DNA from: a phage
Assembly (NCBI GenBank): GCA_012060505.1
Contig: GCA_012060505.1_3027.1
Length of the DNA: 20,833 nt
Strand: one strand, 5' to 3'
Part shown: positions 11,986 through 18,130 of the stretch, one piece after another
How positions within the stretch are numbered: the first letter of the stretch is position 1
How the letters are laid out: each line of letters opens with the position of its first letter
The notes under the pieces: generated by a model
Told to the model about the DNA's origin: nothing
Database searches by the model: none
Seen by the model: the letters and a program-made list of their open reading frames with translations, nothing else
Translations under genes and position numbers: made by a program

Positions 11986-13164
11986 TTAAAAGTATTTTTT
12001 AAAACTCATCATAACTTTATCATCAACATCATTATCAATCTGTGCAACAAGATAAGATGACAGCTCTACTTCTTGCGGTGCAGATTGAACATTATCAGAA
12101 TTAAGATATTCACGAATCCAAGGATATGGATGTTTAACCGGAGCATCGGTAATTGGGCATGGAAGACCACACTGTTTCATACGAGATACAGTTAAGTAAT
12201 CAATAAAGCTCCACATGCTATTTGTATTTAATCCAGGAACATCGCCATCTTTAAATAAATGAACTGCCCAATCTTTTTCTTGGCGGTTAACTTCCATGAA
12301 AATATCAACTGCTTCTTGTTCACACTCTTTGGCAATTTTAACCCATTCATCACCATCAGTACCGGATTGAAGTTGACGAATAATATATTGTGTACCTTTA
12401 AGATGAAGCTGCTCATCACGTGCAATAAATTTCATAATCTTCGCATTACCTTCCATGATTTCCATGTTCTTATGGAAGTTGAAAGTACATGCAAAGGATA
12501 CATAAAAACGAATAGCTTCCAGAGCATTGATAACGTGCAGACAGAGATAAAGCGACTTCATCAGGTCTCGTTTACATTCTTCCAAATGAGTGAGACTGTT
12601 TGAATATGCTTCTAAATCATATTCATTTTCAGCAAAATAACTAAAGTTTTCTTTGGCGTTTTCCCAAATACGTGTCTTGTCCAGAACATCATCATAATAA
12701 CGACCAATAGATTCAGCACGTTTCATGATAGCTTTATCTAATACAATCTCATCAAATACCTTTGACGGATCAGTATAAAGATTTCGCATAATATGAGTGT
12801 ATGAACGACTGTGAATGGTTTCACTAAAAGTCCATGTAGCAACCCATGTATCAAGGCTTGGGTCTGAAATCAATGACATAAGTACAGCAGACGGTGCACG
12901 ACCCTGAATGCTATCTAGAAGTGATTGATACTTCAGATTATTAGTAAAAATATTTTGCTGATACTGAGGAAGCTTATTAAATTGCGCAGCATCCATCATT
13001 AAGTTTACTTCTTCAGGACGCCAGAAAAATGACAACTGCTTTTCGGTTAAATCTTCAAAAACTTTATGACGTTGAATATCATAACGCGCAATACCAAGAC
13101 CTGAACCAAAAAACATAGGTTCTTTTAAAACATCAACTGGATTTGTATTAAAAACTGTGCTCAT
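11986..13164 (-). CDS. nrdB: Ribonucleotide reductase class Ia small subunit, uninterrupted
   Basis: 392-aa continuous ORF, ferritin-like R2; position after nrdA. No intron-like interruption. Confidence 0.9.
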   Translation of the reverse strand: MSTVFNTNPVDVLKEPMFFGSGLGIARYDIQRHKVFEDLTEKQLSFFWRPEEVNLMMDAAQFNKLPQYQQNIFTNNLKYQSLLDSIQGRAPSAVLMSLISDPSLDTWVATWTFSETIHSRSYTHIMRNLYTDPSKVFDEIVLDKAIMKRAESIGRYYDDVLDKTRIWENAKENFSYFAENEYDLEAYSNSLTHLEECKRDLMKSLYLCLHVINALEAIRFYVSFACTFNFHKNMEIMEGNAKIMKFIARDEQLHLKGTQYIIRQLQSGTDGDEWVKIAKECEQEAVDIFMEVNRQEKDWAVHLFKDGDVPGLNTNSMWSFIDYLTVSRMKQCGLPCPITDAPVKHPYPWIREYLNSDNVQSAPQEVELSSYLVAQIDNDVDDKVMMSFKKYF

Positions 13165-13215
13165 AAATTTTCCACTTAGTTAATAGATAGTGACTCGTCC
13201 ATGAGTCAAATTATA

Positions 13216-15480
13216 TCATAATTTACAGGATGAACAATCTTCAGCTTTTGGAGTTTCTATTTCATAATCATCAGTACCAGAACCATCACGGGTATTATGA
13301 TAATAGAAATTTTTAATGCCATAATACCATCCGTATAGCATATCATCAATCATTATTGACATTGGAACCTTTCCTTTTGGAAAAATCTGTGGGTCATAAT
13401 ATGTATTCGCTGAAGCTGATTGACATACCCATTTCAGCATAATAGCTACCTGCGTAAGATAAGGTTTATTACCTTTCTTAGCTAATTTCCATGTATAATC
13501 ATAAAGGTCTATGTTATGCTCAATATTGGGCACGACTTGATTAAAGGAGCCCTCTTTTGATTCTTTAACAGAGACTGGTCCACGTGGAGGCTCGATACCG
13601 TTTGTACTGTTAGAAACTTGGGAAGATGACTCACATGGCATAAGTGCTGATAATGTGCTATTACGGATGCCAAAGAGCTTAAGGTCTTCCCGCAGCGACG
13701 ACCAGTCACAAACGTATTTTGGAGCTGCGATTTGGTCAATCTTTTTATTGTACCAGTCGATAGGTAATTCGCCTCGAGACCAACGAGTGTCTGAATAATA
13801 TTCACAAGGTCCTTTTTCTTTGGCGAGCTTAATGGATGCTTTAATGAGTCCATACTGTAATCTCTCAAATAGTTCATGTGTTAAATCGTTAGCATCTTCA
13901 TAAGAAGCAAAGTTACTTGCCAGCCAAGCTGCATAGTTGGTAACACCTACACCAAGGTTACGACGCTTTTTAGCTTTTTCTGCTTCAGGAACTGGATATC
14001 CTTGGTAATCCAAAAGATTATCAAGAGCGCGAACTTGAACTTCTGCCAATTCATTAATTTTATCTTGGTCTTGCCAGTCAAAATTATCTAGTACGAATGC
14101 AGAGAGAGTACACAATCCAATTTCAGCATCAGGACTATTCACATCATTTGTTGGAATAGCAATTTCACAGCACAAGTTACTCTGGCGAATAGGTGCCTTT
14201 TCACGAATAAACGGAGTGTAGTTATTCGTATTATCAATGAACTGCACATAAATCCTTGCTGTTCCTGAGCGTTCAGTCATGAGCAATTCAAATAGTTCAC
14301 GGGCTTTAATACGCTTTTTACGAATATTAGGGTCTTTTTCTGCAGCTTCATACAATTCACGGAAACGGTCTTGGTCTTTAAAATAAGAATAATAAAGCTC
14401 TCCGCCCATTTCATGGGGACTGAACAAAGTAATGTAATCGTTCTTTCCAAAACGTTCCATCATCAAATCATTCAGTTGAACACCATAATCCATATGACGA
14501 ATGCGGTTTTCTTCTACACCTTTGTTATTTTTCAAAACGAGAAGATTTTCAACTTCCAAATGCCAAATAGGATAATAAGCAGTAGCAGCGCCGCCACGAA
14601 TTCCACCCTGTGAACATGATTTAACTGCAGTCTGAAAATGTTTCCAGAAAGGAATAACACCAGTATGGCGTACTTCACCCATGCCAATCTTAGAACCTTC
14701 GGCACGAATCATACCAACGTTAATACCAATTCCAGCGCGTTTAGAGATATATTCAACAATTGAAGCGGAAGCCTTATTGATAGACTTTAATGAATCACCT
14801 GCCTCAATAACAACGCATGAACTAAACTGTCGAGTCGGAGTACGGCAACCAGCCATAATAGGAGTTGGCAATGAAATCTGTCGAGTAGATACTGCTTCAT
14901 AAAAACGGATAACGTGTTTTAATCTATCAACAGGTTCATCTTGATGCAATGCCATTCCAATAGTCATAAATGCAAACTGTGGAGTTTCATAAATTTGACC
15001 AGTGGTTTTATCTTTAACTAGATATTTTTCTTTTAATTGCATCGCCCCGGAATAAGTAAATTCCATATCCCGCTCGTGCTTAATTTTTGATTCTAAAAAT
15101 GTAATTTCTTCTGCAGAATATTTTGACAACAATTCAGGGTCGTATTTACCTTCATTTACACAGTAAGAAATATGGTCAATAAATGAACGTGGTTCATACT
15201 GCCCATAAACATGCTTACGAAGAGCAAACATTAAACAGCGTGCAGCTACATATTGATAATCAGGTTCTTCAACCGAAATAGAATTCGCAGCGGCCTTAAT
15301 GACAATAGTCTGAATATCATCAGTTGTCATTCCATCACGGAGATAAGATTTAATATTTTCATATAATTCATAAGGATCGACTGATGTTCCTTCAGCTGCC
15401 CAAGATAAAACTTTAATAATTTTTTGTGGGTCAAAGCTCTGAGAAACACCACTACTTTTGATAACATTAATTAATTGCAT
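13216..15480 (-). CDS. nrdA: Ribonucleotide reductase class Ia large subunit, 754 aa
   Basis: Length matches recollected T4 NrdA; active-site region NLCCEIAIPT and C-terminal Cys pair (CSSCKL) typical of class Ia R1. Confidence 0.95.
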   Translation of the reverse strand: MQLINVIKSSGVSQSFDPQKIIKVLSWAAEGTSVDPYELYENIKSYLRDGMTTDDIQTIVIKAAANSISVEEPDYQYVAARCLMFALRKHVYGQYEPRSFIDHISYCVNEGKYDPELLSKYSAEEITFLESKIKHERDMEFTYSGAMQLKEKYLVKDKTTGQIYETPQFAFMTIGMALHQDEPVDRLKHVIRFYEAVSTRQISLPTPIMAGCRTPTRQFSSCVVIEAGDSLKSINKASASIVEYISKRAGIGINVGMIRAEGSKIGMGEVRHTGVIPFWKHFQTAVKSCSQGGIRGGAATAYYPIWHLEVENLLVLKNNKGVEENRIRHMDYGVQLNDLMMERFGKNDYITLFSPHEMGGELYYSYFKDQDRFRELYEAAEKDPNIRKKRIKARELFELLMTERSGTARIYVQFIDNTNNYTPFIREKAPIRQSNLCCEIAIPTNDVNSPDAEIGLCTLSAFVLDNFDWQDQDKINELAEVQVRALDNLLDYQGYPVPEAEKAKKRRNLGVGVTNYAAWLASNFASYEDANDLTHELFERLQYGLIKASIKLAKEKGPCEYYSDTRWSRGELPIDWYNKKIDQIAAPKYVCDWSSLREDLKLFGIRNSTLSALMPCESSSQVSNSTNGIEPPRGPVSVKESKEGSFNQVVPNIEHNIDLYDYTWKLAKKGNKPYLTQVAIMLKWVCQSASANTYYDPQIFPKGKVPMSIMIDDMLYGWYYGIKNFYYHNTRDGSGTDDYEIETPKAEDCSSCKL

Positions 15481-15797
15481 AAGTCCTCAACTTGAAAATC
15501 GTCTTTAAACAATCGGTTAACTATATGAGCTATTATATCACCATGACACGGCTTTGGTTTACATGTGCATCCTAGCCTCATTCCACGTAAAGGCTCTAAA
15601 TGTGCTTTAGTTATTTCTCCGGATTTAATTCGACGTATAAAATCTTTTTTGAATAATTCAATGGCAGCCTCCCGGCTGCCAGCATCTTTACCGACGTAAT
15701 TTCCCCAAAATGTACCACGGTGAATATTAACATCAAAGTCGGATTTATATTTATTTACTACTCGGCATATACGGCCTGTGCGGTTGTAAGTGTTCAT
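15471..15797 (-). CDS. DUF4326-like small protein (nrdA.1-like by position)
   Basis: FWGN...[11 protein letters not shown] pattern resembles the DUF4326 signature as I recall it; ATG start; 10-nt overlap with nrdA start. Confidence 0.55.
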
Positions 15798-16014
15798 ATT
15801 GTTCTTCCGTTAAAACAGTAATATCGTAGTAACAGTCAGAAGAAGTTTTAACTGTGGAAATTTTATTATCAAAATACTCACGAGTCATTTTATGAGTATA
15901 ATATTTTTTGCCATAAATGATAATAGGCTGATTTGGTCCTGGAACTTCTAACTCGCTTGGATTAGGAAGTGTAAAAAGAACTACACCAGAAGTATCTTTA
16001 AATCGTAAAATCAT
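15751..16014 (-). CDS. Hypothetical protein (nrdA.2-like by position)
   Basis: ORF track 15751..16026 appears to start at TTG; moved to in-frame ATG at 16014. Overlaps the downstream ORF by about 47 nt in another frame. Confidence 0.45.
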
Positions 16015-16034
16015 ATATCCTCGCAATAATAAAA

Positions 16035-16895
16035 TTACACCGCCATTTTTCCTTTAATTGGCGGATGAGATACATAGTTGTTAAGAACAAAATTATGAGG
16101 CTTTGCAAATTGACTCAACCAAAATACCTGCGATTCTGTGCCCCATTCATCAAATTCATCTGGAAATTTTAATTGTAATTCGCATAAATCCATAGGTTCA
16201 CGACATAAAATTTCTTTACATTGTTCTACGTGATTCATATAGATATGAGTATTACCACCAGAAAATATCAAATCTCCCGGAATAAGATTACACATCTTAG
16301 CTACAATATGAACTAACGTAGCATATGATGCAATATTAAATGGAAGACCGAGGAAAACATCTACCGAACGTTGATACCACTGAAGGTCAAGGTATCCATT
16401 ACGCACATTAAACTGATAGAACATATGACAAGGCGGTAATGCCATATATTTAAGTTCAGCTGGATTCCACGCAGAAACAATTTGACGCCTATCATTTGGC
16501 AGTTTTTTAATACGATCAATAACTTCTATAATTTGATCTACACCGCCAAAATCACGCCACTGTTTTCCATAAATTGGACCAAGTTCACCGCTATGGTATC
16601 CTAAATCTTTTGCTTGATTTTCGTAATTTTCATCCCAGACTGTTTTGCCTTGAATTAATGAATCATGTTGAATTAATCGCAAATCATTGACATTTGTGCT
16701 TCCTGATAAAAACCATATTAGCTCAGCAATGCATGCATTCCAGGCGAGCTTTTTAGTTGTTACTGCAGGAAAACCTTTGGTTAAATCCCAACGCAATTTA
16801 GTACCGAACAGAGCAATTGTTCCTGTGCCCGTTCGGTCATCGGTTTCATAGCCATTTTCAAAAATGTCTTTAATTAAATCTTGGTATTGTTTCAT
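16035..16895 (-). CDS. td: Thymidylate synthase, 286 aa, uninterrupted
   Basis: ThyA active-site motif PCH ([11 protein letters not shown]); one continuous ORF of the length recollected for T4 Td, so no intron and no I-TevI ORF. Confidence 0.95.
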
Positions 16896-16940
16896 TTAGT
16901 ACCTTATATAAATTATAATACATTTTATGAAGCTAAATAA

Positions 16941-17288
16941 TCAATACGGTTTAGCATCAAATTTTCTCTCAATTTCAGGCGTGAAATATAATTCTTTACC
17001 GCGTTTGGAAAAGCGACCAATAATATGATAATTATTCTCATCAAACGTGATATTACCAATATCCATAGCTTTCAACCAAATATCGATATTTCTATCCAGC
17101 TTTATGTCAAAATTCCAATACGGAGAACTATTACCGAAAATACTACAAGCGGATTCAGTGAAACAACTGCTATAAATCTTGTCTTTAGGAACTACTAATT
17201 GATAGACACCTTTAATAAACTGAGGACCCTGCCACTTTGGCTGTTTCTCATCTTTTTCTAATAGAATAGGGTAATAATTAAAATTCAT
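16941..17288 (-). CDS. Hypothetical protein, 115 aa, between frd and td
   Basis: ORF track; ATG start preceded by a GC-rich stretch (gcgcggcgg) unusual for this AT-rich region; no recognisable motif. Confidence 0.55.
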   Translation of the reverse strand: MNFNYYPILLEKDEKQPKWQGPQFIKGVYQLVVPKDKIYSSCFTESACSIFGNSSPYWNFDIKLDRNIDIWLKAMDIGNITFDENNYHIIGRFSKRGKELYFTPEIERKFDAKPY

Positions 17289-17307
17289 ATTTCCGCCGCG
17301 CGTTATT

Positions 17308-18130
<823 letters not shown>

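Follow-up and report, generated by a model that had tools for sequence, protein, structure and literature searches.

In bacteriophage T4, the td gene (NC_000866 143235..145112, a span of 1878 nt) is interrupted after nt 549 by a 1017-nt group IA intron that contains a 245-aa GIY-YIG endonuclease gene. The endonuclease, I-TevI, has a 38-bp recognition site with a 20-bp binding region centred on the intron insertion site, and it cuts 23/25 nt upstream of that site (PMC2988022). Within the cleavage motif, CAACG, C1 and G5 are critical (PMC5009752), and cleavage depends on the distance of the motif from the insertion site or binding region (PMC2988022, PMC5009752). The enzyme has otherwise been called sequence tolerant (PMC2988022, PMC4065259). 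Co-conversion of the flanking exons is established in homing of the td intron, and in T2 × T4 crosses T2 is a classical example of a phage that receives T4 markers (PMC2988022). Among T-even-type phages, intron-encoded homing endonuclease genes have been tabulated for T4, T6, RB3, and LZ2 only, with none tabulated for T2, RB14, RB15, RB18, RB26, RB32, or RB51/RB70 (PMC2993671, Table 5). In RB51, td is annotated as one 861-nt CDS, and the gene order is nrdB, nrdA, nrdA.1, nrdA.2, td, a 115-aa ORF, and frd.

We analyzed a 20,833-nt stretch of phage DNA (the window) that is 96–97% identical to RB51, RB68, wV7, and KMB42 over 99–100% of its 20.8 kb; judged from these alignments, its source is an RB51/wV7-like Tequatrovirus. 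RB51, RB68, and wV7 have the same td gene as the window, annotated as a single CDS for thymidylate synthase, at the same length and with the same neighbours (frd, 115-aa ORF, td, nrdA.2, nrdA.1, nrdA, nrdB), and the genes around td in the window all lie on the minus strand. A handful of point differences separate the RB51 and window td genes, one example being G252D in RB51. The features discussed below are collected in Table 1.

Table 1. Positions in the window of td, of its I-TevI target, and of neighbouring features.
Feature	Position	Strand	Basis or remark
td, thymidylate synthase, 286 aa, uninterrupted	16035..16895	minus	ORF list, Pfam, 1TIS, T4 alignment
Empty intron insertion site, td nt 549|550, GGT|CTT on coding strand	16346..16347	minus	Exon splicing and alignment
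I-TevI target region, −30..+21	16326..16376	minus	7 synonymous differences from T4
CAACG, I-TevI cleavage motif, −27..−23 from insertion site	16369..16373	minus	Identical to T4, native distance
Exon-1 flank, −49..−1	16348..16396	minus	11/49 positions differ from T4
Divergent C-terminal cassette, Td residues ~231-268	16090..16207	minus	58% nucleotide differences from T4
115-aa ORF in 416-bp frd-td insertion	ORF 16941..17288 (insertion region 16887-17314)	minus	phrog_1928, function not assigned
nrdA.2 homologue (DUF5496) and nrdA.1 homologue (DUF4326, 108 aa)	15471-16026		Between td and nrdA
nrdB and nrdA-nrdB spacer	11986-13215		nrdB is an uninterrupted 392-aa ORF

The six-frame ORF list of the window contains td as a single unbroken ORF of 286 aa with an ATG start. 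The Pfam family PF00303 (Thymidylat_synt) spans residues 2-286 of the product (profile positions 1-266 of 266, E = 2e-93) with a score of 312.9 bits, as compared with a cut-off of 24.3, and among solved structures the best match is T4 thymidylate synthase (1TIS), which aligns 1-286 on 1-286 with E = 4e-179. In a residue-by-residue alignment with T4 Td (1TIS), the segments containing the PPCH cysteine and the YQRS arginine, which we take to be active-site residues, are identical. By sequence the window Td is a thymidylate synthase, and it is expected to convert dUMP to dTMP.

The first-pass annotation had claimed that this ORF is unbroken at the length of T4 Td (286 aa), and that T4 td itself is interrupted by an intron in which I-TevI is encoded. 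Both statements hold. The NC_000866 record gives td as a two-piece join with I-TevI annotated inside, and removal of the 1017 nt after nt 549 yields an 861-nt, 286-aa ORF (spliced T4 td), to which the window gene, also of 861 nt, aligns with 0 indels and 87.1% nucleotide identity. The T4 exons are colinear with the window gene, and the two proteins are identical over residues 54-230. The explicitly spliced sequence was used in place of a plain global MAFFT alignment with unspliced T4 td, in which the intron gap was scattered. A hidden intron-like insertion, for which alignment to spliced T4 td had been proposed as the test, was sought in this way, and none of any size was found; in particular, nothing is inserted between td nt 549 and 550 of the window, where GGT|CTT runs on unbroken. 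The window td is full length, splicing is not required, and the I-TevI gene is absent.

Similarity searches of the window gave the same picture. The T4 td intron, used as a blastn query with 7-nt words against the whole window, produced chance-level matches only, and tblastn searches of the whole window with I-TevI, I-TevIII, and MobE produced nothing beyond chance (the best E-value for I-TevI against the six-frame translation was 0.12). A scan of the window with Rfam yielded no family at the gathering threshold and only noise near td at E ≤ 10. This empty scan carries no weight because the positive controls were also missed: Rfam did not find the td introns of T4, ECO4, and ACG-C40 or the T4 nrdB intron, and in our controls RF00028 (the Rfam group I intron family) found just the ORF-less 320-nt td intron of Pinarejo (63.7 bits; L085:1271-1552). 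We therefore dropped Rfam as an intron detector, and the valid tests for intron absence in the window td are the T4 alignment and the blastn search. For annotation, the point is that the Rfam group I model passes over td and nrdB introns that hold an endonuclease ORF, and that the intron-free state of a phage gene cannot be declared from an empty Rfam scan.

The intron-free allele is common. With the window td as a probe, 601 phage records were matched, and in 407 of these a single match spans at least 80% of the gene; a 160-nt probe centred on the insertion site matched 581 records (401 in one place). The T4 I-TevI gene and adjacent intron, used as a probe, found matches in 256 records, and in 197 the match spanned at least 80% of the probe. 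Among the matches of the 160-nt probe, about 4 of 60 evenly sampled rows are interrupted at the site by 320 bp, the length of the ORF-less intron that these rows contain. Altogether, roughly 60–65% of records are intron-free at td, some 30–35% contain the complete intron, and a few percent have its ORF-less form, percentages that are approximate and include duplicate GenBank/RefSeq entries. The IMG/VR collection is dereplicated and returned few Tequatrovirus loci, which served chiefly as outgroups. Most records thus have an intron-free td, and the situation in the window is already documented for RB51, its nearest published relative.

Relatives illustrate the other states of the site. In Pinarejo, PYps55T, MLP2, HP3, and U115, the ORF-less intron occupies the insertion point that is empty in the window, and these alleles are another stage of the same mobile-element cycle. 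UPWr_E2 is also among the records with an ORF-less td intron, which make up several percent overall. The 320-nt intron of Pinarejo (L085:1281-1600) corresponds to nt 1-106 of the T4 intron joined to nt 796-1017, with 95–98% identity. Exon 1 of Pinarejo is 1 nt shorter, which frameshifts td from approximately residue 130; a sequencing error is possible. In two IMG/VR loci (L039:3049-4062 and L067:3055-4079), td is split at the same codon, 183/184, the encoded Td being 78% and 59% identical, respectively, to that of the window; both insertions have a T4-like intron 5′ end and encode homologues of I-TevI with 76% and 67% identity to that of T4.

T2 td resembles the window gene in being unbroken, 861 nt long, and in keeping CAACG, but it differs in lying nearer the intron-linked haplotype at −49..−19 (see below) and in having the T4-type C-terminal cassette. 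RB32, G9062, and RB14 td are intron-free like that of the window, with an ORF at the same place upstream of td. RB32 and G9062 share the window-type C-terminal cassette, and RB14 has a third type. The RB32 target (L084:2358-3218), in contrast to that of the window, has CAAAG at the cleavage motif, departs from T4 at 15 of 51 positions, and has a serine codon changed to AGT, with the protein unchanged. The flanks in G9062 (L091) and RB14 (L088) are recoded much as in RB32, whereas the window has no such recoding.

Another divergent segment of td encodes a C-terminal part of the protein. Outside the C-terminal cassette, td is 2–4% different from T4, and T4 has another cassette at residues 231-268. 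We found three cassette types among 16 td alleles: one in T4, T2, and RB3; one in the window, RB32, T6, and ECO4; and one in RB14. The idea that the cassette travels with the intron was rejected, as both main types occur with and without it. The substitution R231C is present in the window and RB51 only and is absent from the other 14 alleles.

Several neighbouring features were also compared with those of T4. In T4, frd and td overlap directly (TAAATGAAAC), without the 416-bp insertion that separates them in the window. On both sides of the insertion stands a 12-nt direct repeat, TAAATGAAA(T/C)AA, which is a duplication of the frd-stop/td-start junction; at the upstream copy, ATG-AAA-TAA remains as a relic. 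The 115-aa ORF within the insertion has no Pfam match. Annotations of RB32, RB51, and RB14 include this ORF (“flanked by 9 bp repeat”), as does that of T6; T2, RB3, and ECO4 have an ORF at the matching position upstream of td, T4 lacks the ORF, and in pSs-1, fPS-90, and ACG-C40 another, shorter ORF takes this position. On the other side of td, nrdA.1 has 108 aa in the window and in T4, compared with 95 aa in the shorter RB51 annotation, and the nrdA.2 and nrdA.1 homologue ORFs overlap by 47 nt as listed. The T4 nrdB intron of ~600 nt, with its I-TevIII relic, is absent from the window, where the junction lies near 12488-12491. The nrdA-nrdB spacer is just 51 bp, and T4 mobE and nrdB.1 are therefore absent. 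The identity of nrdB to its T4 counterpart is 82.8% in the 5′ part and 96.4% in the 3′ part.

An empty homing site that is intact and contiguous had also been predicted at td. The site is contiguous, with no indel between −27 and +21 relative to T4 and with CAACG at the right spacing; it is not identical to that of T4. The T4 target reads TATCAACGCTCAGTAGATGTTTTCTTGGGT|CTACCGTTTAATATTGCGTCA, and the window target reads TATCAACGTTCGGTAGATGTTTTCCTCGGT|CTTCCATTTAATATTGCATCA. The differences (T4>window) are −22 C>T, −19 A>G, −6 T>C, −4 G>C, +3 A>T, +6 G>A, and +18 G>A. In the 20-bp primary binding region, 16 of 20 positions match T4 (the exceptions being −6, −4, +3, and +6), and in the stretch comprising the cleavage site and spacer, 18 of 20 are identical, the differences falling at spacer positions 1 and 4. 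Over −30..+21, the sequences of the window, RB51, and IMG/VR locus L004 are identical. The possibility that the window shares the RB32 target was ruled out, as the RB32 site is quite different and heavily recoded.

Published tolerance data bear on these changes. In a single-substitution scan of the spacer, positions 2, 6, and 8 were sensitive and C3T was nearly inactive, and natural phage td cleavage-site/spacer sequences that were 53–87% identical to T4 were cut about as well as that of T4, with the exception of RB32 (PMC4065259); these measurements were made with an engineered TALE fusion of the I-TevI nuclease-linker, not with native I-TevI. Neither spacer change in the window falls at a sensitive position or equals C3T. 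In exon 2, +3T, +6A, and +18A are found beside the intron in ECO4, ACG-C40, and fPS-90, and they also occur in ~6 of 60 evenly sampled records. The −6C and −4C changes are not checkable against natural intron-carrying alleles because homing overwrites both. From the sequence of its target, the window td is very probably a substrate for I-TevI.

To place the differences from T4, we compared 16 td alleles. Ten are intron-free (window, RB51, RB32, T2, RB14, teqhad, pSs-1, G9062, and two IMG/VR contigs), and six (T4, T6, RB3, ECO4, ACG-C40, and fPS-90) carry an intron of 1016-1017 nt at td nt 549|550. All six carriers share a single haplotype over −49..−1, except at −22 (C in T4 and A in the other five), whereas at least four haplotypes occur among the ten intron-free alleles. 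A haplotype common to the carriers is what homing would be expected to leave, since the cut at −23/−25 forces the copying of donor exon sequence, and resection extends the copied tract upstream. Exon 2 of the carriers is not uniform: T6 and RB3 have +3A, +6A, and +18A, and +6G and +18G are found in T4 only. T4 differs from the window in its exon-1 flank haplotype, and so does ECO4, a carrier that is otherwise among the closest relatives of the window overall.

The exon-1 haplotype may also matter to the intron itself. In the carriers, exon 1 ends in TTGGGT, which can pair with intron GCCUGA to form P1 (six pairs), and folding of 10 nt of exon with 22 nt of intron recovered the P1 helix for the T4-type exon at −7.3 kcal/mol. 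With the window exon-1 end, CTCGGT, two of the six pairs are lost and folding predicts a shifted helix. Because the I-TevI cut is upstream of the P1-forming exon bases, those bases are replaced during homing, and we infer that a window-type exon invaded by the intron would receive the matching P1 bases along with it.

We put the probability at about 0.9 that the window td is an ordinary intron-free allele of an RB51/wV7-like Tequatrovirus with a target that I-TevI is likely to be able to cut. A first alternative is that the site is partly resistant to I-TevI, synonymous recoding having been selected to lower cleavage while the protein sequence was kept. Divergence from T4 is indeed locally high at the target (22% over td nt 501-549 and 14% over nt 550-570, as compared with 4% over nt 1-500 and 1.7% over nt 571-688), every difference in the target is synonymous, and four lie inside the primary binding region. 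Less readily cut, recoded alleles exist in the group: the intron-free relative RB32 differs at 15 of 51 positions and has CAAAG for CAACG, and its cleavage-site/spacer showed reduced activity with the I-TevI nuclease-linker fusion (PMC4065259). In the window, however, CAACG and its spacing are unchanged, and the spacer changes miss the sensitive positions. The local excess is accounted for from the T4 side, as the −49..−1 haplotype hitch-hikes with the intron in six of six carriers, and the cluster of differences near the site is best explained as the intron-linked haplotype of T4 rather than as special recoding of the window, as far as sequence comparison can tell. In exon 2, most outgroup phages and several of the intron carriers have the same bases as the window. 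At 7 differences, the window target is nearer to that of T4 than are those of nearly all the more distant relatives compared that have a contiguous site (7 to 15), and this fits plain third-position drift. We consider selected resistance unlikely.

A milder form of protection would concern the RB51-type target as a whole, in which CTCGGT in place of TTGGGT and the two spacer changes might weaken I-TevI binding and impair P1. We regard this as quite improbable. If it were true, intron gain with a short copied tract would lead to a mis-registered P1 and poor splicing, and invasion would be selected against in the lineage; this would help to explain how a large clade stays intron-free despite co-circulating intron carriers.

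A further alternative is that the window td formerly carried the intron and then lost it precisely. Possible intermediates exist in close relatives, namely Pinarejo and the other phages whose 320-nt td intron lacks the I-TevI ORF. The intron-linked haplotype is, however, missing from the window at every diagnostic position (−49, −46, −45, −43, −40, −39, −37, −22, −19, −6, and −4), and the mispairing predicted for its exon-1 end also makes a recent ex-host unlikely. Nor does the comparison of haplotypes nest the window allele within a clade of intron carriers. Loss via recombination with an intron-free allele looks the same as never having had the intron. Since the exon-1 haplotype of the carriers is absent, the window td appears not to have been a recent host of the intron, and we consider precise loss very unlikely. 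The last alternative, that td merely seems continuous, owing to an assembly artefact or to an intron-like insertion that is hidden or degenerate, is refuted by the gapless 861-nt alignment to spliced T4 td. The blastn search also speaks against it, as do the unbroken td genes of independently sequenced phages: that of RB51 matches the window exactly over −30..+21, those of NiC89, Sf23, and EC.W14-2 show no difference in the central 160 nt of td, and those of Sf23 and NiC89 are 99.0–99.8% identical to that of the window across the whole gene.

The ordinary, cuttable intron-free allele that we favour leads to a specific expectation for mixed infection with a carrier such as T4, T6, RB3, or a similar phage. 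I-TevI would bind the window td around the empty insertion site and cut it near the CAACG motif, and double-strand-break repair from the donor would copy the intron into the gene. Donor exon 1 would be co-copied from the cut to the insertion site, a minimum of 23 bp, and over ~49 bp going by the natural intron-carrying alleles. Local td markers of the window phage would then be excluded from the progeny.

By itself, the intron-free td has little significance, as it places this phage with approximately two-thirds of the T4-like coliphage records. Its td region would be predicted to act as a recipient, not as a donor, toward phages of the T4, T6, and RB3 type, and the comparison of its exon 1 with those of the carriers offers a natural illustration of a known principle, that the exon bases forming P1 always move with the td intron.
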